Sequence record: KY684082
DNA: 43,036 nt
Source of the DNA: Shigella phage SFN6B
Strand: one strand, 5' to 3'
In this document: piece after piece, positions 3,299-25,199 of the stretch
How positions within the stretch are numbered: the stretch's first letter is position 1
Layout of the letters: the number at the start of each line of letters is the position of its first letter
Notes under the pieces: model-generated
Seen by the model: only the letters and a program-made list of their open reading frames with translations
Databases searched by the model: none
What the model was told of the DNA's origin: nothing
Made by a program: the position numbers and the translations under genes

Positions 3299-3643
3299 AT
3301 GCTCACAGTAGACGAAACAGCGCTACTGTGTTGGCGCTTGCTAGAGACGCAAGGCAAGTGCGGCTGCAGTTGGGAAACATTCAAAGAGGTCCCTAATGAA
3401 CTCAAGCGAATCGTACCGGTCGAGCGTAGGCCCCTCCGAGTTCGTAAGCAGGATTCTACGGTGGTGCTCACCGCATACCGGGAGTATACAGAATCTGCCG
3501 CGCGGCAGTTGCAAGAGCACCTTGCATTCAATGTGGTTGCAGCGCTACGGCAGTATGGATATAGGGGAGCTTTTACGCGATTTAAAGCCGCAGTGCGAGC
3601 CTATTACAAGCAGCAACAACTCTCTGCGTGGTATGCACGCTGA
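3299..3643 (+). CDS. Hypothetical early protein (114 aa)
   Basis: ORF track; AAGGA Shine-Dalgarno upstream. Confidence 0.55.
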   Translation: MLTVDETALLCWRLLETQGKCGCSWETFKEVPNELKRIVPVERRPLRVRKQDSTVVLTAYREYTESAARQLQEHLAFNVVAALRQYGYRGAFTRFKAAVRAYYKQQQLSAWYAR

Positions 3644-3689
3644 ACTTTTAACGTATGATGAGATACTAGTAACACCGGAGACAAAGAAA

Positions 3690-5405
3690 ATGCAAGAGAC
3701 TAACAAAGTAAACGTAGATGCAAACGTACCTGCAAATGTACCTGCCTACGAGGGTTGGACCATCAAATTTCCAGAAGGGGCCAACGCTCTTCCGCTGAAG
3801 AAACAGATGTACTCTTCCGGGGATTACTGGTGCCAACTTCCCTACCTATCAACTCGAGGCCATGCGCGCGTGCAAAGTAACAAAACCCGTGCGCTTTTGA
3901 ATGGCATTTATATGTGGTCAAAGGTGCTGCCGGGATATATTGTAGCACTTGGCAACTTTACAGCTGCAGGAGAGGAGTTGAGTGTATATACTGGGCCGCT
4001 GGGAGCAGTTGATATTAGTGACACTCTCCTGCATAAGCTCCTTGACCGTGCAAGTACCTGCGACCGGGCATTCGGTTTATACAGCAGAACCTTCTATGAT
4101 GGCCCTGACGTAGTTACAGAGCGCGTAGTAGAGGCGGTGCAATACTTCACTGGATACAAGGTGCACAAACAGGCTATAGAGTTGTTCGAAGAGATTATGC
4201 TAGCACCTACGTACTCCCTCCGGGCCAAATACACTCGCGGCGCGTACAGTGAGCGTGATGGAGATTACTGGGCAGCAACCTTGCTTATGCAGTTGCACGG
4301 GTTCGTGGTGTCTAGGTTTGCAATCCCGCTGGGTTTTGGATTCCGAAACGGTGAGCCTGTAGTAATGCTGGGGCAGCCGCGACTACACAAAGATTATGCT
4401 GCAATTACCGAGTATCGCTGCGTGGAGATGCGCGTGGGTAAATGGCTTGCTAACTACTACGGTAGTGGGGTAGACTTCCGGGAATGTATTGAAGACCTCA
4501 AAGCTATGAATGTAGACCCAACCACGTATCTTTGTAAGACCGAAGAGGAGTGGTACAACGCATACGAGAAAGGCCCGCGTAGCTGCATGACCGGATACAA
4601 CTTCGAGTATAGCCCGGTGCGTGTATACGCTACGACGAGTCACGGCTTGCCGGATAATGGGCTGCGCTTGTTCATCCAGTATACCGGTGAACTTTTTGGC
4701 GACGACTTTAAAGTGCAAGCCCGCGCTATCGTTAACATCGAAACCAACGAATACGTCCGTGCATACGGAGATGCTGCGGACGCCATTCTACGTGCTAATG
4801 GGTATGAGCACGATACAGACTGCTTAGATGGCGCACTACTGGCACGCATTCCGCACCCAGAGAATGAAGGTGCCGTGCTTATGCCGTACTTAGACGGGAA
4901 TCAAGATGGCGTGGATGAAGAGGGGAATAATGCGTTCGTTATCTGCGACTGCTATGACTATGAAGCACAGGATGCTGACGGGTACATTTGGATTGATGAC
5001 GATCGCTGCGCTTGTACAGAGTGTGGGGAACGTTTCGACGAGGAGGACATGTACGTATCTTGTGACGGTGGTTATGTATGCTCGCACTGTATCGGTGATA
5101 CTTACGTACAGGTAGTGGGCCGCAGCGTAGTGTACCCATCATGGGATTGCTCATGGTCTGACTACCACGACTCTTGGGTACTTGACCAGGACGTAGCAGA
5201 TTGTGCTGTAGAGGGTACAGTGCATGATGAAGAGCCAATGGTGTGCGTACAAGGGTACAATGTTCTGAGTGTGCATGCCGAAGAGCACCCAGTGCACGGT
5301 ATGATTCTCACGGAGTATGCTGCGTCCGTATTGGATGAACCCTACCTCGGTAATGAAGAAGCCGAAGAAGACAAGGAAGCTAAAGCAGAACAGGAGGCAG
5401 CTTAA
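3690..5405 (+). CDS. Large early protein of unknown function (~571 aa) with C-terminal Cys-rich zinc-ribbon-like cluster and acidic tail
   Basis: ORF track 3396..5405; start moved to ATG 3690 (GGAG upstream; avoids overlap with 3299..3643); alternative ATG at 3633. Cys cluster CDCYDY...CACTECGERF...CDGGYVCSHC; C-terminus EEAEEDKEAKAEQEAA. Confidence 0.65.
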   Translation: MQETNKVNVDANVPANVPAYEGWTIKFPEGANALPLKKQMYSSGDYWCQLPYLSTRGHARVQSNKTRALLNGIYMWSKVLPGYIVALGNFTAAGEELSVYTGPLGAVDISDTLLHKLLDRASTCDRAFGLYSRTFYDGPDVVTERVVEAVQYFTGYKVHKQAIELFEEIMLAPTYSLRAKYTRGAYSERDGDYWAATLLMQLHGFVVSRFAIPLGFGFRNGEPVVMLGQPRLHKDYAAITEYRCVEMRVGKWLANYYGSGVDFRECIEDLKAMNVDPTTYLCKTEEEWYNAYEKGPRSCMTGYNFEYSPVRVYATTSHGLPDNGLRLFIQYTGELFGDDFKVQARAIVNIETNEYVRAYGDAADAILRANGYEHDTDCLDGALLARIPHPENEGAVLMPYLDGNQDGVDEEGNNAFVICDCYDYEAQDADGYIWIDDDRCACTECGERFDEEDMYVSCDGGYVCSHCIGDTYVQVVGRSVVYPSWDCSWSDYHDSWVLDQDVADCAVEGTVHDEEPMVCVQGYNVLSVHAEEHPVHGMILTEYAASVLDEPYLGNEEAEEDKEAKAEQEAA

Positions 5406-6439
5406 TGTATGGTGTTGACCTTAAACTACTGACAAAGATACTAACAACGCACCGACCTAGCTGGGGCAGTACCAAATGGTTTGAGCCGCTACTTAGTAGC
5501 GCTCTTGCTGGTGCAGAACACTACGTTAGGGACGCTCATGGTAACTACTTTGTGCTTATTGGTAACTCTGAACAGAGTGACGTAGCATTTACATCACACC
5601 TCGACACAGTGGCCCGGCCTGGTAGTGCTGCGCCAGACATTGCAATCACTAACAAGGGCATAATGTTCCTGCGGAATCCACAGGTGGCGGATTGTCTAGG
5701 TGCAGACTGCGGTGCTGGTATCTACCTGATGCTAGAGATGATTAGGCACGGTGTGCATGGGCGCTACTGCTTCTTCGTGGATGAGGAGGTAGGTTGTGAG
5801 GGCAGCAGAGCATCAGCCAAAGATGATACAGGGTTCTGGACTGGGGTCAAGGCGATGATTAGCTTCGACCGCCGGGGTGATGGTATCATTACGCATCAAC
5901 GGTACATGCGCTGCTGCTCTGATACGTTCGCAAAGGAACTAGCGGCCCGACTAGGACGAACGGAGGCGCACTTACAGAAGGGGGTATACACGGACTCCGC
6001 TGAGTTCGTAAGTATTATCCCAGAGTGCACTAACGTAGGCGTAGGGTACATGCACGAACATACACCAGACGAGGTGCTGGACTTAAACATCCTTGGTCAG
6101 GTACTGGAGCGTGTACTGCAAGCAGGCACATTCAAGCACCTACCGATTGAACGGGATCCAAAGGTAGTGGAACCGGATGCGTGGTTATCTGCCTCTGCGT
6201 ATCCTTTTGATATGTCACTAGATGTTCCCTATGCGGAAGACCCGCATTTACTTGCAGCATTCAAGGAGGTGTCACAGCTTTCTAAGCAGCAACTGATTAG
6301 TTGGGTATTGGATAACCCAGCAAGGGCGGCGGAGTACATCATGGTGTTCTCCGATTATGGCTTCAAAGAGGAACTGATTGAACTTGGCACCCGAGTTGTA
6401 GAGGACTGGGGTGGATACGAGAATATTGTGGAGGGTTGA
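5405..6439 (+). CDS. Putative MH-clan (M20/M28/M42-like) zinc metallopeptidase
   Basis: Ordered motifs matching the co-catalytic zinc peptidase pattern: SHLDTV (H-x-D), LGADCGAG (bridging Asp), FFVDEEVGCEGS (Glu-Glu), later Asp and His (MHEHT). Motif-level reading only. Confidence 0.5.
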   Translation: MYGVDLKLLTKILTTHRPSWGSTKWFEPLLSSALAGAEHYVRDAHGNYFVLIGNSEQSDVAFTSHLDTVARPGSAAPDIAITNKGIMFLRNPQVADCLGADCGAGIYLMLEMIRHGVHGRYCFFVDEEVGCEGSRASAKDDTGFWTGVKAMISFDRRGDGIITHQRYMRCCSDTFAKELAARLGRTEAHLQKGVYTDSAEFVSIIPECTNVGVGYMHEHTPDEVLDLNILGQVLERVLQAGTFKHLPIERDPKVVEPDAWLSASAYPFDMSLDVPYAEDPHLLAAFKEVSQLSKQQLISWVLDNPARAAEYIMVFSDYGFKEELIELGTRVVEDWGGYENIVEG

Positions 6440-6441
6440 TT

Positions 6442-6912
6442 ATGTCTAAGTTTAAAGTTGGTGATAAAGTTGTCCGCAAATCACCCGACGACAGTTCATC
6501 GTTTAAGAAGCACCAAGGGGATTTTGATTACTACACAGTTACAGATATGTCCCCAAGCGGCCACTGGCTGCAGTTGGACAACTTTACTATCGACGATGAC
6601 TATTACCCGTGGTGTGCAACTAACTTCGAGCTGTACCAAGAGCTGGACGACGAGCTGCCGCCTGCACCAACCTCAGTACTCTATTACCATAGCACTGCGG
6701 ATGCATATAACTTGCAGCATATGATCGTGCAACCACATTGGGAGTTAGAGGGACATCTCAGTATCGCTATCGTGAAGAGCGGTAAAAAGTTCGATCCCCT
6801 GGCTTACGGTGATGCATTATCCCTCAACCTGGAACCCGATGCAGCCTTGCAGTTGGCACATGACCTATGCCGCATGGCTATGGATATTAAACGTAAGGAG
6901 AAAGCACAGTGA
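6442..6912 (+). CDS. Hypothetical protein (156 aa)
   Basis: ORF track 6436..6912; ATG at 6442 preceded by GGAGGG. Confidence 0.6.
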   Translation: MSKFKVGDKVVRKSPDDSSSFKKHQGDFDYYTVTDMSPSGHWLQLDNFTIDDDYYPWCATNFELYQELDDELPPAPTSVLYYHSTADAYNLQHMIVQPHWELEGHLSIAIVKSGKKFDPLAYGDALSLNLEPDAALQLAHDLCRMAMDIKRKEKAQ

Positions 6913-7370
6913 AGTATGAGTACAACCCGGATACCGGGGAGATACTGCGCTATGGGAAACCGGTAGGGTCTAAGGACTCCTCCGGGTACCTGGTGGTGTG
7001 GGTGGATGGTAAGTGCTGGCGTGCCCACCGTCTGGCCTACCACCTACAAGGCTTGCCGGTACCTAGACAAGTGGACCACATTAATGGAATCAAAGATGAT
7101 AACCGGTGGGTCAACTTACGTGCAGCCACTAACTCTCAGAACCAGTACAACCGCAAAGGTTGTGCTGCATCAGGAAACCTAAAGGGCGCATACTACAACA
7201 AGGCTATGCGCAACTGGTACTCCCTAATTCGTGTAGGTGGTAAGCGTAAATACTTAGGCTCTTACCGTTCGGAAGCTGAGGCCCACGCAGCCTATGTAAA
7301 GGCCTCTCAACAAATGCACGAGGGGTTTGATGTATGGACGAGCCGTGGCTTAGAGCCTGCAAGCGCCTAG
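6909..7370 (+). CDS. HNH homing endonuclease (HNH plus AP2-like DNA-binding region), paralog 1
   Basis: VDHINGIKDDNRWVNLRAATNSQN HNH core; GTG start with AAGGAG upstream; paralogs at 13318, 24732 and 35743. Confidence 0.8.
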   Translation: MKYEYNPDTGEILRYGKPVGSKDSSGYLVVWVDGKCWRAHRLAYHLQGLPVPRQVDHINGIKDDNRWVNLRAATNSQNQYNRKGCAASGNLKGAYYNKAMRNWYSLIRVGGKRKYLGSYRSEAEAHAAYVKASQQMHEGFDVWTSRGLEPASA

Positions 7371-8122
7371 CGATAGGGCAATCGAGTAGGTTCCGCTGCT
7401 GCGGCAAGACTCCTGCAGCGGTAATCTACAATAAACCTGACACCTGGAGCATGTACTGCTTTAGGTGTCACAAGACTGTTAATGAGCGCAAGCAGTACCA
7501 GCGCATACAGTTACAGGAAGAGCCGAGGGTGCAGCCCTCTGCACCTGCAGATGCAATTTGCATTAGCCAAGCGCCTGCGGAAACACAGAATTTTATTTAC
7601 GGATTCCTTGCTACAAAAGGAATCATGCCTGAAATGGTGGGGGATGCAGAATGGAGCAAAGAGAAACAGCGGATACTATTCCGTGCCGGGGGTGCTGTAC
7701 TGGGCCGCGCTGTTCATGCCCGACAGCAACCGAAGTGGGTAATGTACGGCCAGCCAATAGCTTTCGCTGTCGCGGCACCTGCCGTAGCACCGGCTGTAGC
7801 TGCGGCCGCACCTCTAAAGGTCGTGCTCACCGAGGACTTACTCTCAGCCCGGAAGATACAGCACGCAGTTACGAGCTACAGTGCGTTGAACGTGCAGGCT
7901 ATAGCTATGCTGGGTACACGCTTGCCCACGCAGCTAAGGGCCTGGCTGATTCAGAATCGCCCGGAAGTGATTCTGATGCTGGATAATGACCCGGCAGGGC
8001 ATGCTGGGGTAGTAGCAGCACGCAAAGCACTGCGCCCGTTCATGCAGTGCCGAGAACATTACTTCGCTGCGGATCCTAAGGACGCAGAAATCAAAGAGAT
8101 ACTGGAGGCGCTTAATGCTTAA
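7334..8122 (+). CDS. DNA primase (zinc-binding domain plus TOPRIM)
   Basis: CCGKT...CFRCHK zinc-finger pattern; TOPRIM-like VVLTEDLLSARK and VILMLDNDPAGHAG; sits immediately upstream of the helicase. Confidence 0.8.
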   Translation: MDEPWLRACKRLAIGQSSRFRCCGKTPAAVIYNKPDTWSMYCFRCHKTVNERKQYQRIQLQEEPRVQPSAPADAICISQAPAETQNFIYGFLATKGIMPEMVGDAEWSKEKQRILFRAGGAVLGRAVHARQQPKWVMYGQPIAFAVAAPAVAPAVAAAAPLKVVLTEDLLSARKIQHAVTSYSALNVQAIAMLGTRLPTQLRAWLIQNRPEVILMLDNDPAGHAGVVAARKALRPFMQCREHYFAADPKDAEIKEILEALNA

Positions 8123-8321: not shown

Positions 8322-9602
8322 TTGGACCTAATAGTAGTCAAGGCAATGTGCACACAGAAGGTCTGGAACCGACTGCGAGAGCAGATACCCAAGTCTATGC
8401 TAGCGCCAGATACATCAAACCTACTGGACTGGGTGGGGCTGTACTGGAACACGTACCCGGAGCACCAGGAGGTGCAGTGGGACGCGATGCAAAGCATGCT
8501 CAATCTCCGGGCCGGACACTTGTCCCGTGAAGAGCGGGTGATTATGGACGAGCTTATGCGGGGAGTACAAGCCGTGCCACAGGATTCTGTGGTGGGGATT
8601 GTTCAGACCCTGAATGAGTTAGCATACAGTGGGGAGGTTGCTGCACTTACACAGCGCTACCAAGACGGTGAGGAGGTTGATTACCTGCTGGAGATGAAGC
8701 ACCTCCAGCGCAAGTACGGTGATGGTGCTGCTGTTCATGATTCGCTACTGGAATGGGAGAGCGGAAGTGTTGATGAGATACTTGCCGCGACTGATGAAAG
8801 TGGCGGTCTTAAGCTGGGTGTGTTTGAGCAACTGTCGAGTAGCATTCGTGGGCTTCGCGGAGGTGATTGCATCGCCGTTGCTGCCCCTGTTGATTCTGGT
8901 AAAACTAGTCTACTCGCTGCTATTGCCGTGGACTTTGCTAAGCAGATGCAGCAACAACCCGAAGTATATGGGGACCGTCCGATTCTGTGGTTGGTTAACG
9001 AAGGCCCGGCGACGCGTACAGTGCCGAGGGTATATCAAGCGGCGCTGCATTGGACTTTGGCTGAGATTAAGGACAGGCACAGTAGGCAAGAGTTTGTGCC
9101 AGCCTATCTGGAGAAAGTAGGCAGGGCTGACCGCATCCGTATCAAGGCAGCGCACTCCCTTACGATGGCCCAAATCTCTACACTCATGGAGGAGATGCGT
9201 CCGGCGGTAATCATCATAGATATGGTGGCTAACATCCGTGGTGGTACTATGGAGAGCGAACACCAGAACCTAGAGGCGAAGTGGCAGGAGCTGCGTATCC
9301 TGGGGTGTGAGAATGACTGTGCTGTTATCGGTACTATGCAGCTTTCGCTTGAAGGTTACAACCTGCTGTTCCCGCCGCTCACGGCGATGAAGCAGAGTAA
9401 GATTGGTGTACAAGGTGCTTTGGATTTGGCGATTATGATGGGGTGCTTAGACAGGAACGAGCAGCCGCACATGCAAAACATTCGTGGTATCAGTACACCC
9501 AAGAACAAGATGGCGCTATCAGGCAAGGAATCGCTACTGCAATTCGAGGTAGCATTCGACCCAGGTAGATGCCGCTTTAACGAAGGGCAGATTAACAAGT
9601 GA
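8322..9602 (+). CDS. DnaB-like replicative DNA helicase
   Basis: Walker A AAPVDSGKTSLL and Walker B AVIIIDMV; TTG start 5 nt after GGAGG. Confidence 0.85.
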   Translation: MDLIVVKAMCTQKVWNRLREQIPKSMLAPDTSNLLDWVGLYWNTYPEHQEVQWDAMQSMLNLRAGHLSREERVIMDELMRGVQAVPQDSVVGIVQTLNELAYSGEVAALTQRYQDGEEVDYLLEMKHLQRKYGDGAAVHDSLLEWESGSVDEILAATDESGGLKLGVFEQLSSSIRGLRGGDCIAVAAPVDSGKTSLLAAIAVDFAKQMQQQPEVYGDRPILWLVNEGPATRTVPRVYQAALHWTLAEIKDRHSRQEFVPAYLEKVGRADRIRIKAAHSLTMAQISTLMEEMRPAVIIIDMVANIRGGTMESEHQNLEAKWQELRILGCENDCAVIGTMQLSLEGYNLLFPPLTAMKQSKIGVQGALDLAIMMGCLDRNEQPHMQNIRGISTPKNKMALSGKESLLQFEVAFDPGRCRFNEGQINK

Positions 9603-9605
9603 CTT

Positions 9606-9637
9606 CCCTAGCGCCTTCCTAGAGGGCGCTATGTAGG
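9606..9637 (+). promoter_or_regulatory. Conserved inverted-repeat element, copy 3 (CCCTAGCGCC-ttcctagag-GGCGCTATGTAGG)
   Basis: Same motif family as 1798 and 2646; ~27 bp upstream of the DNA polymerase ATG. Confidence 0.5.
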
Positions 9638-9663
9638 TACATGGTATGGGAGGTATAAGTAGT

Positions 9664-12027
9664 ATGACAACCAGTATAATGCACATCGATTTGGAGACAG
9701 AGAACCATGAATATTATGGCTCTAAAGCAAGCCCATACTGCCCTGACAACTATGTTGTTGAGTCAGCATGGCGTATCGACACAACACAAGCTGACGGTAC
9801 TACCACTGTTGGCGCGACTCAATCAGTGCGCTTCAATTCAAGAGCTGATTTCTTGGCGGGAAACAGTGCAGCAGAAGGCTGCCGGTGGTTTCATATTCCA
9901 GAGGATTGTTGGCTTATTGTTGCACACAATGCCGCCTATGAAATCTCCTGGTTCCTCACGTATCAGAGACAGCAGTTCGAAGCCTTCCTCAAGCGCGGCG
10001 GCAGGGTGTTCTGCACGATGCACGGAGAATACATCGCCTCGGACTTTCAGAGCATGTATCCGTCACTGGACGAGACGGCTCCTAAGTACGGCGGTACGCA
10101 CAAAGTAGATGGGGTTAAGATTCTCTGGGAGCAAGGTGTATTAACCTCCCAGATTGATCCTATGCTATTGCATGACTACCTAGTGAATGGGGATATACCG
10201 AACACGGCCCTGTGCTTCTACGGCCAGTGCGCTACGTTCGCCCAGCGTAATCAGATGCAGTACGTGTGGGAGCGTATGGATGCGTTGCTGGCATGGGCAT
10301 ACTGTGAATGGTTTGGACTGTTCGTGAATATGCCTATTGCTCGCAAGAACCAAGAGGAGCAGGAGCAGCGTATCCTGGAGATTAAACAGGAACTGCAGCA
10401 GTACATACCGAAGGACTTGCCGGAGACCCTGGATTTCAACTTCGGTTCAGACTTTCATATGTCCGCACTGGTGTACGGCGGGCCTATCAAGTACCGCAAG
10501 AAGGTTCCCTATGACCCGCCGCAGTATGTTAAAGACGATTACTACCGCCTATTAGATGGTGGGAAGGTTCTGTGCAGGAACGTGGGTGGAGATGACTGGG
10601 ACCAGAAGGTAGTTAAGTATGCCTCAGGGAAGAACAAGGGCCTTCCCAAAGTATTCCGCCTTGATACAGAGGAGGAGAAACTCAAATGGGAGGACGACCT
10701 ATACTTCTGCCCGGGCCTGGTTAACATCCAAGAACTTCCAGAGGTGCTCCGAGAGAAGTATGCTGAGCGTGGGGAATTCAGGCAAGCACGGTGCCTGCAG
10801 GATGGGACACCAATCTACAGCACCAGCACAGATGCAATGGAAGCCCTAGCACGTAATGGATTTGAGTTCTGTCGATTGGTGAACGAACTAGGCGCTCTGG
10901 AGAAGGACACAGGAACCTACTACCTGCGAACAGAGTACAACGAAGATGGGTCAGTTAAAAAGACCTCGGGCATGCTTCAGTACGTCATACCTCAGAACTC
11001 CGATGACTCAGGTATTATTCACCACCGCCTTAATACTTGTGCTACTGTTACCGGGCGACTATCTGGCTCTAACCCAAACCTCCAGAATCTCCCGCGAGAT
11101 GGAACTAGTAAAGTAAAACAGATGTTCACTTCCCGTTTCGGTGAATCCGGTCGTATCACTGAGGTTGACTACTCCGCCCTGGAAGTGGTTATGTCTTGTG
11201 TTCACACCGGAGACAGGAAGCTGTTGGGTTTGCTGCAGAACGGCACGGATATGCACTGCTACCGCCTAGCGTTCAAGGAGGGCAAAACCTACGAAGAGAT
11301 GTATGACCTCTGCCACAACGCCAATGGGCCGGACTACAAATACTGGAAGCAGCAGCGTACGGACATTAAGCCTCCGAGCTTTGCTGCACAGTACGGGGCT
11401 ACGGCTAAAGGGATTGCGTTTGCTACAGGCTGTACAGTGGAGTATGCGCAGTCGTTCCTGGATAACGAGGCGAAGCTGTTCCCAGACACCATCGGATTCC
11501 GGGCGGTAGTGAAGGAGGAGGTAGAGCGCACCGGGGCGGCTGGGCGCATTTACCGGGAGCAGGCGGATGATGGCAGCTACCGCATCTACCGCATTGGCAC
11601 CTGGACCAGCCCAGCTGGTGCACGGTACAGCTTCCGCCAGAAGGAGCAGTGGAAGGAAGTAGTCCCTGGCCAGCGCAAACAAAAGGTGATGGACTACAAA
11701 GAAACTGAGATGGCTAACTACTGGTGTCAGGGTGAGGCATTCTTCCTGATGGCGGTAGCAGCTGGTATGGTTCTGCGTGCAATGCTGGCGCGTGATTGGT
11801 TCGATAATCAGGTGTGTTTGATTACGAACGTACACGATGCATTGTATCTGGATAGTGCTAATCCGGAAGTAGGCAGAGAAGCGAGCCTGTTGGTTAAGCA
11901 GTGTATGGAGGATGCGCCTAAGCGTATTCACCAGCTCTGGCCTAACTACGGCATCATTGGCGAAGTCCCGTTCCCAGCGGAAGCTGAAATGGGTACAAGC
12001 ATGTACAGTAAGGAGAAAGTAGAATGA
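9664..12027 (+). CDS. DNA polymerase, family A (T7 gp5-like)
   Basis: Exo motif HIDLETE; pol motif A DYSALEVV, motif B KPPSFAAQYG, motif C NVHDALYLD; track start 9646, ATG 9664 preferred because of GGGAGG upstream. Confidence 0.9.
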   Translation: MTTSIMHIDLETENHEYYGSKASPYCPDNYVVESAWRIDTTQADGTTTVGATQSVRFNSRADFLAGNSAAEGCRWFHIPEDCWLIVAHNAAYEISWFLTYQRQQFEAFLKRGGRVFCTMHGEYIASDFQSMYPSLDETAPKYGGTHKVDGVKILWEQGVLTSQIDPMLLHDYLVNGDIPNTALCFYGQCATFAQRNQMQYVWERMDALLAWAYCEWFGLFVNMPIARKNQEEQEQRILEIKQELQQYIPKDLPETLDFNFGSDFHMSALVYGGPIKYRKKVPYDPPQYVKDDYYRLLDGGKVLCRNVGGDDWDQKVVKYASGKNKGLPKVFRLDTEEEKLKWEDDLYFCPGLVNIQELPEVLREKYAERGEFRQARCLQDGTPIYSTSTDAMEALARNGFEFCRLVNELGALEKDTGTYYLRTEYNEDGSVKKTSGMLQYVIPQNSDDSGIIHHRLNTCATVTGRLSGSNPNLQNLPRDGTSKVKQMFTSRFGESGRITEVDYSALEVVMSCVHTGDRKLLGLLQNGTDMHCYRLAFKEGKTYEEMYDLCHNANGPDYKYWKQQRTDIKPPSFAAQYGATAKGIAFATGCTVEYAQSFLDNEAKLFPDTIGFRAVVKEEVERTGAAGRIYREQADDGSYRIYRIGTWTSPAGARYSFRQKEQWKEVVPGQRKQKVMDYKETEMANYWCQGEAFFLMAVAAGMVLRAMLARDWFDNQVCLITNVHDALYLDSANPEVGREASLLVKQCMEDAPKRIHQLWPNYGIIGEVPFPAEAEMGTSMYSKEKVE

Positions 12028-12245: not shown

Positions 12246-12407
12246 TGATAGGTGTACCCTCGGGTGGTGTAGGGGGTTAGGGTAACATGAGAATTAGCCA
12301 GGGTCAAGTAGATAATTAAATAAAATTATTTGTTGACTCTGGCTTGATTCTGTGATTTACCGAGAATTAATGTGATACGAGTAGGAACAACATAAGAGAG
12401 GCAAACC

Positions 12408-13388
12408 TTGGCTAAAATTAGTTTGATTAACCTGTTCAGCAAAGACCAGCACGAGGAAGTGCTGAGTTATCATAAAGACAACACGGCGGCAGCTGCAGCC
12501 TACACAGCTATGACGGATGGGAAATACCCAGTGTCCCGCCAGCTTGTACGCTACTGGCGCAGCATCTTTATGGATAATAATGGTAGCAAGGCAAAGGCTA
12601 ATAATGCTTTGATGCAAGCCCGCAAACTAATCCAGCCCTCCCCAACGGATGACATTGGGGATACGTTTGTACCGGAAACCTGTCGACGTATTCTCGTTAT
12701 CGGGGACCTGCACGAACCGTACACACACCCGGACGCGTATGACTTTTTATGCACTGTGAGGGATGAGTACTGCCCAGACATTGTGGTGCAGATAGGCGAT
12801 GAGACAGATGGACACGCTATTAGCTTCCATGATAGCAGTCCGGAGTTAGACAGCGCTGGAGTGGAATTAGAGAAGGCCAAGCTCGGTCTGGAGAGGCTTC
12901 ATGCTCTGTTCCCTAACATGCTCCTGTGCGACTCTAACCATGGCTCCCTTGTATACCGTAGAGCCAAAGCTCATGGACTCCCTGTACAGTTCATTAAGAA
13001 GTATCGGGACATCCTGTTCCCAGAGCACGGAGCGCCGGGGTGGAGTTGGGGTGATGCTTGGGATTTAAATACTCCGATGGGTACTGTGCGATTTCAACAT
13101 CAAGTATCTGGGGACCTTCTGCTCAACGCAGCTCATGAACGTAAGTCCATGGTAATTGGACACTTCCATGGGAAGTTAGATATACAGTATGCGGCGAGCA
13201 GCACTGCTTTGTACTTTGGTGCGCACTGCGGTTGTTTAATCGACAATAAGAGTCTGGCATTTGCTTATGGTAAGTTGTCAAGAAGCAAGCCGATTCTAGG
13301 GTGTATGGTGATTACAGATGGATGCCCACAAATCATCCCCATGCTATTGGACGACACCGGCCGGTGGTGTTCTAGAGTACAACCCTGA
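12408..13388 (+). CDS. Calcineurin-like metallophosphoesterase (putative nuclease or phosphatase)
   Basis: MPP signature blocks GDLHEP, GDETDGH, DSNHG, GHFHG; TTG start after GAGAGG. Confidence 0.7.
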   Translation: MAKISLINLFSKDQHEEVLSYHKDNTAAAAAYTAMTDGKYPVSRQLVRYWRSIFMDNNGSKAKANNALMQARKLIQPSPTDDIGDTFVPETCRRILVIGDLHEPYTHPDAYDFLCTVRDEYCPDIVVQIGDETDGHAISFHDSSPELDSAGVELEKAKLGLERLHALFPNMLLCDSNHGSLVYRRAKAHGLPVQFIKKYRDILFPEHGAPGWSWGDAWDLNTPMGTVRFQHQVSGDLLLNAAHERKSMVIGHFHGKLDIQYAASSTALYFGAHCGCLIDNKSLAFAYGKLSRSKPILGCMVITDGCPQIIPMLLDDTGRWCSRVQP

Positions 13389-13827
13389 TACCGGGGAGTT
13401 CACATGGGTTAAAGTTGTTAGTAACCGTGCCAAGTTGGGAAGTACTGCTGGGCACGTAAGACCTGATGGGTACTTGGTATTGCCGTGCGGAACCCGTGCT
13501 AATGTTGCAGCGTGTATGTTGTTGGGCCTAGATGTTCCTGATGGATATGTGGTGGACCACATTAACAGGGACACCCTGGATAACCGCGCGTGCAATCTTA
13601 GGGTTGTGTCAAAGAAGGTTAATGCACACAACACGGGGCTCCGGGCCACCAACAAAACAGGTGCTCGCGGAGTCTCTTGGGATTCTAGCAGAGGCAAGTA
13701 CCGGGCCGCTCTGATGGTGGACGGAAAGCAATACAGCAGGCGCTTTGACAGCTTAGAAGAGGCCTCAGAGTGGTACCACAGTGTGGCCGACAAACACGGG
13801 GTTAGGCAATACCAGCAACCTGCATAG
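13318..13827 (+). CDS. HNH homing endonuclease, paralog 2
   Basis: YNPDTGEF... then VDHINRDTLDNRACNLRVV HNH core and AP2-like GVSWDSSRGKYRA; overlaps the 3' end of the metallophosphoesterase gene by ~70 nt; start uncertain. Confidence 0.75.
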   Translation: MDAHKSSPCYWTTPAGGVLEYNPDTGEFTWVKVVSNRAKLGSTAGHVRPDGYLVLPCGTRANVAACMLLGLDVPDGYVVDHINRDTLDNRACNLRVVSKKVNAHNTGLRATNKTGARGVSWDSSRGKYRAALMVDGKQYSRRFDSLEEASEWYHSVADKHGVRQYQQPA

Positions 13828-13896: not shown

Positions 13897-14721
13897 ATGA
13901 CTATGAATGCACTGGATACTCTGAACTCCCTGGTAGCTGCTGCGATTGAAACGCAAGATGTTGATATGACGGAGACCGCCCAGGGTGGGGCATATGAGGA
14001 CGTACTGCTGCCGAAGGGTGAATACTATGGTTACTTCACTGAGTACGTGGAAATCGGTAAGCGCCTCCCGACTAAGGGTGGTAAGCCTACTGGTAAGCCT
14101 GCAGCGGCAAACGTGCGTATCGGGGTTGTGGTGTACGGTCCGAACGGTGAGGTGAAGCGTATCCGTCCGTATCCGATGACTATCAGCAACTTTGAGCGCG
14201 CGGGCTTCAAGAAGTTCTTCGACAAGCTCAACTACGATGGCAGCATTAAGCACGCCGCACAGCGACTGGGACAGGCGTTTGTGTTCCCAGTGGATGAGCA
14301 CACCAGTGCAGCAGGTAAGAAGTCCAACATCGTAGACCTCGCGGCAATCCGTCCGATTCCGAAATTCGACCCGAATACCGGTGAGCCGATTAAAATGCCT
14401 GAGCTGGATGCTTCCGAGATTAAGCTATTCTTGTGGAACAACCCGACCAAGGAAACCTGGGATAGCTTATATATTGAGGGGACCAAGGACGACGGTAAGA
14501 GCAAGAACTGGATTCAGGAGGATATGTATAAGGCAGTGGACTTCCCAGGCAGTGCTCTGGATATTCTGCTGAACGCTAGCTCAGTTCCTAGTCCGGCAGC
14601 TATGCAGACCCCAGCAGCCCCAGCTGCTCCTGCTGCTCCAGCTACACCAATAGCTCCGGCTGCACCAGTGGCTCCAGCGGCCCCTGTAGCACCAGCAGCG
14701 CCTGCTGCACCTCAAGCATAA
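13897..14721 (+). CDS. Hypothetical protein with C-terminal Pro/Ala-rich repeat (274 aa)
   Basis: ORF track; C-terminus PAAPAAPAAPATPIAPAAPVAPAAPVAPAAPAAPQA encoded by a degenerate 9-nt repeat. Confidence 0.65.
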   Translation: MTMNALDTLNSLVAAAIETQDVDMTETAQGGAYEDVLLPKGEYYGYFTEYVEIGKRLPTKGGKPTGKPAAANVRIGVVVYGPNGEVKRIRPYPMTISNFERAGFKKFFDKLNYDGSIKHAAQRLGQAFVFPVDEHTSAAGKKSNIVDLAAIRPIPKFDPNTGEPIKMPELDASEIKLFLWNNPTKETWDSLYIEGTKDDGKSKNWIQEDMYKAVDFPGSALDILLNASSVPSPAAMQTPAAPAAPAAPATPIAPAAPVAPAAPVAPAAPAAPQA

Positions 14722-15437: not shown

Positions 15438-15591
15438 CTTCTTTGCTAAAGCCTTTTACTTCCTGTTAGTAGCCCCTCTAGTACCAGTAGCCTTCCTGTG
15501 CTGGGTATTTGAGAAGATAGAAAACAGTAAAGCACTTATCGCATGGGAATCCTGGGCGCGTAAGCTAGCCAAGAAGGTTACGGGGGTCTGA
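15430..15591 (+). CDS. Small membrane protein (53 aa)
   Basis: ORF track 15379..15591 trimmed to ATG 15430 (GGAGGG upstream); hydrophobic FYFLLVAPLVPVAFLCWVF. Confidence 0.45.
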   Translation: MRNFFAKAFYFLLVAPLVPVAFLCWVFEKIENSKALIAWESWARKLAKKVTGV

Positions 15592-16559
15592 TGATTATCA
15601 ACGGGGTTGACTTGTCCCAGCTCGGGGAGCAGTTAGCTCCGCAGAACGCTGGGAAGATTCTGCTGTACGACGCGGACTTTTGCGTGTACAAAGCCGCTGC
15701 TACAGTGAAACGGCTAGATACCGCGATACGCCGCTTCTATCAACTGGTGCTTGAGGATATGTTCTTGGTCGGTTGCTCAGAAGCAGTGGCGTATCTAACG
15801 CCTACGGGCTGTGCTAAGTGCTTGCGATGGCACCTCCCTACGGCTAAGCCCTACCAGGGGCAGCGCATTAATCGGCAGGAGCTACCTCTAAAGGCGCCAT
15901 TGAAGCGGCACTTAATTGAGAATCCCGACCAGTACTATGAGCAAGGTATCCAGGTAGTTAGTAGTGACTTCTTCGAGGCGGATGACTTGTTCGTAATGGA
16001 TTCATACGCTTTCGGAGAACGTGGTATTCTGATGTCACAGGATAAAGATTCCTGGCTCAGCCCCATGGCTAGATTTGATATTCCAACCGGTACAGTGTGG
16101 CCTGCACTGAAGGATCCCTTCGGCTGGATTAAGTGGGATGATACCCAGGCTATGCCGGTACGAGCACACGGCTTGAAGTTCTTCTGGTGGCAGATGCTAG
16201 CGGGAGATGATGCCGATAACGTCAAAGGCATCACGTTGCTTGATGGGAAGCCCTGTGGCAAGCGAACGGCCTTTGATGCTATCTACCCTATTACCTCAGA
16301 GCAAGACGCCGCAGAGTTCGTTGTAGCGGCTTATGCTAGAAACAACCAAGATGTACTCGCAGAGGCTGAATGCCTGTTCCTGCGGCGCTCCCAATCAGAT
16401 TCTGCCTATCAGTATCTGATGTCACTGTTGACTACTCCCAGTCTACGTGACTGGGTGCAGTCGCTGCACGAGTACCATAAACAGCACATACAGTGGATAC
16501 AGGAGCACCCAGACAATGGCGAAGATGTCTGCGAAGGAAATGAGCCTGCGGGCGATTGA
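15591..16559 (+). CDS. 5'-3' exonuclease (T7 gene 6-like, FEN family)
   Basis: N-terminal ILLYDADFCVYKAA and later GLKFFWWQMLAGDDADNVKGI parallel T7 gp6 blocks (VMDGDWLVFQA, WWHLFQTIKGDITDGYSGI) as recalled. Confidence 0.8.
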   Translation: MIINGVDLSQLGEQLAPQNAGKILLYDADFCVYKAAATVKRLDTAIRRFYQLVLEDMFLVGCSEAVAYLTPTGCAKCLRWHLPTAKPYQGQRINRQELPLKAPLKRHLIENPDQYYEQGIQVVSSDFFEADDLFVMDSYAFGERGILMSQDKDSWLSPMARFDIPTGTVWPALKDPFGWIKWDDTQAMPVRAHGLKFFWWQMLAGDDADNVKGITLLDGKPCGKRTAFDAIYPITSEQDAAEFVVAAYARNNQDVLAEAECLFLRRSQSDSAYQYLMSLLTTPSLRDWVQSLHEYHKQHIQWIQEHPDNGEDVCEGNEPAGD

Positions 16560-20175: not shown

Positions 20176-20182
20176 AAATTTA

Positions 20183-20199
20183 ATGTTACAGGAGTAGGA
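20183..20199 (+). promoter_or_regulatory. Candidate phage-RNAP promoter, copy 2 of exact 17-mer ATGTTACAGGAGTAGGA
   Basis: Sits between the RNAP stop and the first downstream gene, abutting its ATG. Confidence 0.45.
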
Positions 20200-24731: not shown

Positions 24732-25199
24732 ATGAGAGAGTTGCTGATGTATGACCCAACGAGTCCTAGCGGGCTGCGTTGGAAGGTTGATGGTTACAGA
24801 AACACGTACCGGGCTGGGGACGTAGCTGGATGTACCCACTCTGGGACTACTGGGTATTATCAAATCGTTATTCGCGGTAAGAAATATATGAGTCATAGGG
24901 TGGTATACTTCTTAGTGCACGGGGAGTGGCCGGATACCGTAGATCACGTTAACGGTGATCGCAAAGATAATCGCATCGAGAACCTACGAGCGGCTACTAT
25001 GCGACAGAACCTGTGTAACCTGACGCGAGCCAAAGGTTTCTACTTCTCCAAAGTAAGTCATAAATTCATAGCCCAAATATGCAATTACGGTAAGAATCGC
25101 ACACTTGGCAGTTTTGACACTGCACTAGATGCGAGAGCTGCGTACCTGCGGGCTAAACTGGAAGAGCACGGTTTCGTGCCGGGGGTGGTTTATTCGTGA
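24732..25199 (+). CDS. HNH homing endonuclease, paralog 3
   Basis: YDPTSPSGLRW... VDHVNGDRKDNRIENLRAATMRQN; inserted between capsid and tail tubular A. Confidence 0.8.
   Translation: MRELLMYDPTSPSGLRWKVDGYRNTYRAGDVAGCTHSGTTGYYQIVIRGKKYMSHRVVYFLVHGEWPDTVDHVNGDRKDNRIENLRAATMRQNLCNLTRAKGFYFSKVSHKFIAQICNYGKNRTLGSFDTALDARAAYLRAKLEEHGFVPGVVYS

Follow-up and report, generated by a model that had tools for sequence, protein, structure and literature searches.

The best described members of the phage metallophosphoesterase (MPP) family phrog_221 come from mycobacteriophages, and a need in replication together with nuclease activity is known for these members only (PMC11795197, PMC12287305). In phage Bxb1, gp47 is needed for phage DNA replication, as PMC11795197 relates in citing Savinov et al. 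2012; it shows limited 3' exonuclease activity in vitro, and its best structural matches are Mre11 and DP1 (PMC11795197). It is also the recombination directionality factor (RDF) of the Bxb1 serine integrase, a role seen as moonlighting and not as family-wide (PMC11795197). The RefSeq record of Bxb1 (NC_002656, 5876-6788) labels gp46 'recombination directionality factor' and gp47 'metallo-phosphoesterase', whereas in the literature gp47 is the RDF. Gp48 of the cluster-A phage A10ZJ24, which has been aligned with the Bxb1 metallophosphoesterase, is reported to degrade linear, plasmid or circular, and genomic DNA in vitro and to be toxic; in M. tuberculosis the phage requires it to replicate its DNA, and motif mutants lose these activities (PMC12287305). 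Here we describe the MPP gene of Shigella phage SFN6B (sequence record KY684082). The stretch analysed, 43,036 bp in length and hereafter called the window, is the complete genome of a KP34-like (Drulisvirus, Autographiviridae) Klebsiella phage. Judged by profile comparison, its MPP is a member of the phage family of Bxb1 gp47, L5 gp54 and A10ZJ24 Gp48, and we give roughly even chances to its being a metal-dependent (binuclear) nuclease that acts on DNA during replication, recombination or the degradation of host DNA. The gene and the parts of its product are the following.

12408-13388, plus strand: MPP gene of phrog_221, 326 aa, TTG start, stop codon within the coordinates, as in the open reading frame (ORF) listing
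12408-12632, plus strand: N-terminal helical domain, aa 1-75, a three-helix core and linker helix, possibly a DNA-binding helix-turn-helix (HTH)
12687-13385, plus strand: MPP catalytic core, aa 94-326, with a family-specific C-terminal beta extension (GCLID...AFAYGK...PILG...PMLL)
12702-12719, plus strand: motif I GDLHEP, aa 99-104, with D100 and H102
12795-12815, plus strand: motif II GDETDGH, aa 130-136, with the bridging ligand D131 and the also conserved D134
12930-12944, plus strand: motif III DSNHG, aa 175-179, with N177 and the catalytic H178
13089-13103, plus strand: motif IV RFQHQ, with H231
13158-13172, plus strand: motif V GHFHG, aa 251-255, with H252 and H254

The window protein matches phrog_221 "metallo-phosphoesterase" over residues 1-322 (E 7.8e-109), which is its only PHROG match, and Bxb1 gp47 matches the same family at E 4.5e-116. 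When a 72-sequence profile of the family was compared with gp47 by hhalign, the alignment covered 200 columns, with every motif and the GCLID region among them (97% probability, E 1.1e-10), and pairwise BLASTP connects the window protein to gp47 at ~24% identity (E 2e-4). The likeness comprises a shared PHROG and profile homology across the catalytic core, including the C-terminal GxLxD region, and it extends to a position in a replication module near DNA polymerase, primase and endonuclease VII and to the same structural neighbours, DP1 and Mre11 (PMC11795197). There are also differences. The mycobacteriophage metallophosphoesterases (255 aa) do not have the N-terminal helical domain of the window protein. 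Motif I of gp47 reads DTQ, with Q for H, as against the canonical DxH in the window protein, which is thus at least as likely as gp47 to be catalytically active. Finally, gp47 serves a serine integrase as RDF, whereas the lytic window genome yielded no integrase or recombinase domain in the ORFs scanned with Pfam and PHROG.

The active site is complete, with all seven canonical metal ligands and the catalytic histidine in place. Among 72 homologues as distant as 35% identity, D131, N177, H178, H231, H252 and H254 are invariant, while D100 and H102 are conserved in at least 90%. An earlier note on this stretch, made from the sequence alone, had recognised a complete calcineurin-like motif set in GDLHEP, GDETDGH, DSNHG and GHFHG; all four motifs are there, and the set is completed by the motif-IV histidine H231 (RFQHQ), which had gone unlisted. 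The core is at least 70% identical across phage genera and is therefore under strong purifying selection.

The gene is in itself ordinary, being intact, well conserved and already annotated in hundreds of phage genomes. We found 1174 homologues in a 90%-clustered protein database and 1848 clusters at 50% identity, and tblastn placed the MPP in 641 phage records, mostly of Autographiviridae and usually annotated as phosphoesterase. SP6 and K1E are among these phages, whose hosts are mostly Klebsiella, Escherichia, Pectobacterium, Pseudomonas, Aeromonas, Vibrio, Proteus and Salmonella. Pfam PF00149 scored the window protein at 18.2 bits, below the gathering cut-off of 21.5, yet it matches 48/72 family members at E <=0.01 (best 2.5e-13); the sub-threshold score is an issue of sensitivity and no evidence against membership of the MPP superfamily. 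NCBIfam and PADLOC returned no match for the window protein, and searches of PDB sequences with the protein, the 72-sequence profile and an N-terminal profile gave nothing meaningful.

The AlphaFold model computed with the 72-sequence alignment (pLDDT 93.5) shows an alpha/beta sandwich of the MPP fold. Its closest folds are nuclease-type MPPs (PolD DP1, SbcD and Mre11) and small phosphodiesterases (YfcE and MJ0936); the PPP protein phosphatases and the phosphatase domain of C. thermocellum Pnkp, at a structural score of 10-11, fall well below DP1, YfcE, SbcD and Mre11, all of these being cross-subfamily scores. The protein forms a distinct MPP subfamily without a close solved relative and leans to the nuclease/diesterase branch. 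Profile searches ended in phrog_221 and not in a protein-phosphatase family, so that neither of the two outcomes that would have refuted the earlier note, a protein phosphatase unrelated to DNA metabolism or a ligase from an HMM search, came about. That note had proposed an Mre11/SbcD-like nuclease or a phosphatase of DNA end processing or nucleotide metabolism; a complete MPP of the gp47 family lying in a DNA-metabolism module agrees with this in part, but strict membership of Mre11/SbcD is not supported.

Each of these better known enzymes departs from the window protein in some way. Archaeal PolD DP1, a 3'-5' proofreading exonuclease (PDB 5ihe), is 13% identical and gives no sequence-level match; it has an N-terminal OB domain and a DP2 partner, whereas the window protein has an all-helical N-terminal domain and the window polymerase belongs to family A. 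A DxE motif (IDLETE) near the N-terminus of that polymerase, read from the sequence and without a Pfam match, appears to mark a DnaQ-type proofreading exonuclease domain. We set aside the MPP as a substitute for proofreading, as the phage polymerase seems to own this exonuclease motif. Mre11 and SbcD carry a capping domain after the MPP core, which the window protein lacks. Pfam and PHROG scans found no Rad50/SbcC-type ATPase, the only canonical Walker A motif in the genome being that of the replicative helicase, and an Mre11-Rad50 system was rejected for want of the partner ATPase. YfcE and MJ0936 have GNCD in motif III, are ~165-185 aa long and possess neither the N-terminal domain nor the C-terminal extension. 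Lambda protein phosphatase and the C. thermocellum Pnkp phosphatase domain resemble the window protein in being phage- or repair-associated MPPs; the Pnkp-type system co-encodes a polynucleotide kinase and a ligase, neither of which was found in the window, though both occur near the MPP in other phages.

The MPPs of Autographiviridae have ~90 additional N-terminal residues. In the model of the window protein, residues 12-56 form a three-helix unit, which is followed by a linker helix and then by the invariant peptide QPSPTDDIG. Pfam returned only noise for this domain. Its weak structural matches are mostly to DNA-binding HTH, Myb, small-terminase and transposase domains, and a few family members have HTH_psq or sigma-70 region 4 at the same position. 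These matches are suggestive, but not proof, that the N-terminal domain binds DNA.

The recognisable genes of the window all lie on the plus strand in KP34 order: early genes, primase, helicase, DNA polymerase, exonuclease, endonuclease VII, RNA polymerase, and structural and lysis genes. Two of them flank the region of the MPP.

9646-12027, plus strand: DNA polymerase of family A, in which Pfam matched the polymerase domain only (residues 377-785)
15591-16559, plus strand: gp6-like exonuclease

The MPP gene lies between these two, together with six further ORFs, as the earlier note had said of its position. The segment 12000-14000 matches 243 phage records, that of Klebsiella phage Hope at 93% identity. 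In every Autographiviridae lineage examined the MPP sits in the DNA replication/recombination module, directly after endonuclease VII in SP6-like and other non-KP34-type lineages and after the DNA polymerase in KP34-type phages; its place is already known to vary among KP34-like and PhiM1-like phages (PMC6115819). In the 80 IMG/VR loci compared, the neighbourhood includes endonuclease VII in 58/80, a gp6-like exonuclease in 57/80 and a ligase in 18/80, the last always 0.3-1 kb downstream. The MPP is thus a fixture of the nuclease/recombination cluster, found freely with a ligase as well.

Other neighbours vary. SP6-like K1E has, in order, exonuclease, endonuclease VII, MPP, a DUF3310 protein and a true ATP-dependent DNA ligase, and the arrangement in Vibrio phage phi-A318, likewise with an ATP-dependent DNA ligase, is similar. 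In Aeromonas phage phiA014L the order is endonuclease VII, MPP, a HAD-type phosphatase (phrog_415 'polynucleotide kinase') and a deoxynucleoside monophosphate (dNMP) kinase; in PPWS1 the MPP is followed by a 'polynucleotide kinase'; and in the larger Nitrincola and Tenacibaculum phages it lies beside ribonucleotide reductase (RNR) and MazG genes. The 'polynucleotide kinase' of Hope (locus L001, 7348-7842) consists of a HAD PNKP phosphatase domain (PF25109) only, with no kinase. Since the window has neither the HAD phosphatase nor the small kinase-like gene, both of which are found in Hope, the role of the MPP must be independent of the two. Environmental homologues comprising only the core (L073-L093; ~235 aa, ~46% identical) stand outside any recognisable replication module; one of them, in L076 (5989-6696), starts with TTG and lies between a gene for a 1073-aa protein and lysis-like genes.

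No DNA ligase had been recognised in the genome by the earlier note, and this was borne out. Pfam revealed no ligase domain in the early and middle ORFs or in ten others, mostly late, PHROG revealed no ligase family in the early and middle ORFs, and tblastn and hidden Markov model (HMM) searches of all six frames from the K1E and phiA318 ligases gave at best E 0.02 over 23 aa, whereas the positive controls reached E 0 to 1e-74. KxDG occurs four times in the window, each time within a non-ligase protein. The implied tie between the MPP and the missing ligase did not survive, however. A phosphoesterase cannot seal nicks; the MPP would be no replacement for a ligase, and sealing would fall to the NAD-dependent ligase of the host, as it does in ligase-deficient T7. 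Moreover, the presence of the MPP is independent of ligase absence, because both genes are encoded together in K1E, in phi-A318 and in 18/80 IMG/VR loci, and a ligase likewise accompanies the MPP in Aeromonas phages (PMC9145550). The idea of ligase compensation can thus be removed as a false lead.

From the intact active site, the fold, the family and the genomic context we infer a substrate and a biological role. The MPP would act on DNA as a Mn2+/Mg2+-dependent exo- or endonuclease, and its N-terminal three-helix domain would help it to bind DNA or guide it there. Its partners would be the gp6-like 5'-3' exonuclease and endonuclease VII, together with which it would process intermediates of replication or recombination, or degrade host DNA for nucleotide salvage and host shut-off. 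The gene would probably be transcribed by the phage RNA polymerase from a promoter-like element just upstream, and the weak TTG start would fit a low level of a potentially toxic nuclease. Several observations weigh against such a nuclease. The window protein is only ~24% identical to gp47, whose motif I carries Q where the histidine would be expected, and the activities of the two may therefore differ; the gp47 exonuclease is itself weak, with contamination not excluded according to its authors (PMC11795197), and gp47 is stated to show no phosphoesterase activity (PMC12287305). The window protein has neither the capping domain of Mre11 nor the OB domain of DP1, and our literature search found no functional study or assay of any Autographiviridae MPP. 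Elsewhere the MPP adjoins HAD PNKP-type phosphatase, dNMP-kinase-like, DUF3310, MazG or RNR genes, neighbours that are equally compatible with nucleotide metabolism or end healing, and in 19 environmental loci, where none of the reference neighbour proteins was matched, the context seems unrelated to replication. A bolder form of the nuclease proposal, which we hold to be doubtful, is that the MPP is an HTH-tethered DP1/Mre11-like DNA exonuclease serving as an obligatory accessory of the phage replisome, the lytic-phage counterpart of gp47; in another branch of this proposal it would, by analogy, shred host DNA and blunt inducible defences, as reported for A10ZJ24 Gp48. If the replisome exonuclease were real, an editing or processing nuclease of the PolD-DP1 type would be widespread in bacterial viruses.

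It may also be asked whether the MPP heals ends, removing 3'-phosphates or opening 2',3'-cyclic phosphates at breaks in DNA or RNA, such as those that host defence nucleases make. It would then resemble the MPP domain of C. thermocellum Pnkp, with a kinase and a ligase as partners where present and host repair enzymes otherwise. Other Autographiviridae MPPs do adjoin HAD PNKP-type phosphatase genes, P-loop kinase-like genes or an ATP-dependent ligase (K1E, phiA014L, PPWS1), and Aeromonas phages share MPP, polynucleotide 5' kinase, ATPase and ligase (PMC9145550). We nevertheless consider end healing unlikely: the window keeps its MPP without kinase, HAD phosphatase or ligase, so that MPP function is independent of them, and where a HAD 3'-phosphatase exists an MPP 3'-phosphatase would be redundant. 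Motif II is without the Arg of GDxxDRG, fold matches of the CthPnkp and lambda-phosphatase type rank well under DP1, YfcE, SbcD and Mre11, and the characterised family members are tied to DNA replication or degradation, not repair. A heal-and-seal pair with the 'polynucleotide kinase' of Hope was also considered and rejected, as that gene encodes a HAD PNKP phosphatase domain only and is absent from the window. A protein phosphatase of the lambda type, reprogramming host proteins at Ser, Thr or Tyr, would be very surprising. The protein does belong to the MPP superfamily and some records name its homologues 'phosphatase 2a-like protein', but motif II reads GDETDGH and not GDxVDRG, motif III SNHG and not GNHE, no Pfam, NCBIfam or PDB sequence match to PPP families was obtained, and the gene context is one of DNA metabolism.

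RNR and MazG neighbours in the Nitrincola and Tenacibaculum phages, together with the 19 environmental loci, keep nucleotide metabolism alive as an explanation. The MPP would on this account be a nucleotide-directed phosphodiesterase or phosphatase used for nucleotide salvage or for destroying a host signal such as cyclic nucleotides or Ap4A-type dinucleotides. The dNMP kinase and DUF3310 neighbours in Autographiviridae would suit this role, and the mycobacteriophage enzyme D29 gp66 is described, in work cited by PMC12287305, as using mono- and diesters and cyclic AMP. Yet the extra N-terminal domain resembles DNA-binding modules, with a bona fide HTH there in some relatives, the closest characterised relatives act on DNA or are needed for DNA, and linkage to endonuclease VII and exonuclease is tight. 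In addition, the protein has no PADLOC or NCBIfam match, and a literature search found no anti-defence phosphodiesterase of the MPP fold, so that we rate a nucleotide enzyme as distinctly unlikely. A mainly structural or regulatory cofactor with catalysis secondary, as gp47 is for the Bxb1 integrase, has a precedent in gp47, which moonlights as an RDF (PMC11795197); such a role is nevertheless highly improbable here, given that no integrase was found among the scanned ORFs of this lytic genome and that all catalytic residues are strongly conserved among the 72 homologues, which argues that catalysis is the selected function. A DNA nuclease of the gp47 family is the reading we prefer, and its use lies in the link it draws between the conserved MPP of KP34-, SP6- and PhiM1-like therapeutic phages, the gp47/Gp48 family and the DP1/Mre11 structural class, which gives a core gene of phages now used against Klebsiella a definite function that experiments can test.

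Translation of the MPP gene begins at a TTG codon preceded by a good ribosome-binding site, in agreement with the non-ATG start that the earlier note had described.

12394-12401, plus strand: Shine-Dalgarno sequence AAGAGAGG, 6 nt 5' of the TTG, read from the sequence

In related Drulisvirus loci AAGAGAGG is kept together with the TTG. Homologues from Yersinia, Escherichia, Pectobacterium, Vibrio and Cronobacter phages share the conserved residues 1-34 (MAKISLI.LF.K..H...L...AA.AY), which form confident helices in the AlphaFold model, and upstream of the TTG the ORF stays open for only 12-36 nt more before a stop. Among 26 related loci aligned from residue 1, half (13/26) have the same TTG and leader and the other 13/26 have ATG at the homologous codon; in the ATG-start lineage (KP34, Kp2) an extra gene, gp22, is inserted upstream. 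Because the first 34 residues are conserved and helical, because there is little room upstream and because TTG and ATG are homologous in the 26 loci, we take the TTG as the true start. The non-ATG start is a conserved trait of the lineage and no oddity of one genome. A start codon as weak as TTG may keep down the level of a potentially toxic enzyme. The record of Hope (L001, 2774-3652) starts the MPP at an internal ATG (M35) despite the same TTG and ribosome-binding site, and its annotation is probably 34 codons too short, so that the start codon in some database records can be corrected. The TTG start of the MPP was also seen in Hope, SU552A and PPWS1 (coordinates L001 (Hope) 2672, L010 401, L011 401 and L003 8869). 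The annotated MPP start of K1E is likewise TTG, but it is not aligned with the N-terminus of the window protein.

A promoter-like element, TAATGTGATACGAGTA, lies just upstream of the MPP. The candidate site and the canonical promoter copies of the window are given here.

12368-12391, plus strand: candidate phage RNA polymerase promoter TAATGTGATACGAGTAGGAACAAC, 16 nt 5' of the TTG, a variant of the KP34 strong promoter
716-733: canonical KP34-promoter copy, corresponding to the published S2
20181-20198: canonical KP34-promoter copy, corresponding to the published S1
32786-32803: canonical KP34-promoter copy, corresponding to the published S1

The strong promoter of KP34 RNA polymerase has been defined experimentally, and TAATGTGATACGAGTAGGAACAAC is not among the four promoters published (PMC6834552). 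It agrees with that promoter, T(A/G)ATGTTACAGGAGTA, at 13/16 positions, and a degenerate KP34 promoter pattern finds 4 sites in the window against 0.09 expected. The 24-mer TAATGTGATACGAGTAGGAACAAC is unchanged in all Drulisvirus loci examined, being identical in Hope, SU552A, Kp2, KP34 and 17 IMG/VR contigs, whose adjacent MPP genes are 71-95% identical; it is a good promoter candidate because it has stayed identical while the adjoining coding sequence diverged to 71-76% protein identity. It may therefore be an additional, unreported middle promoter for the MPP and downstream genes, and we point it out as a perfectly conserved candidate for KP34-type RNA polymerases. A sigma-70 promoter was also sought upstream and rejected, the only consensus match (12287-12316) being weak and no better than in shuffles.

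The remaining observations concern the surroundings of the gene. The window contains four HNH_3 homing-endonuclease genes (6909-7370, 13318-13827, 24732-25199 and 35698-36231), with a weak AP2-like region in two of them. The copy at 13318, which shares 71 nt with the end of the MPP gene, is variable among close relatives, being absent or replaced in SU552A and Kp2. Two genes of Hope are missing from the window, the HAD PNKP-type phosphatase gene that follows endonuclease VII (17332) and the small 'nucleotide kinase' gene between helicase and polymerase (9602-9646), and compared with KP34 and Kp2 it lacks gp22 (Gp5.5-like); L002 18471-18791 and L001 (Hope) 7348-7842 were used in these comparisons. 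Beside the MPP/HNH pair, a phrog_862 protein (13897-14721) with a proline/alanine-rich C-terminal tail, PAAPAAPAAPATPIAPAAPVAPAAP, and no Pfam match is labelled inconsistently between records, as single-stranded DNA-binding protein or as 'large tegument protein'. In the early region, a 669-aa protein of phrog_6980 (3396-5405), without a Pfam or PDB sequence match, is followed directly 3' by the gene of an M28-like peptidase homologue (5405-6439), and the two form a conserved early gene pair.

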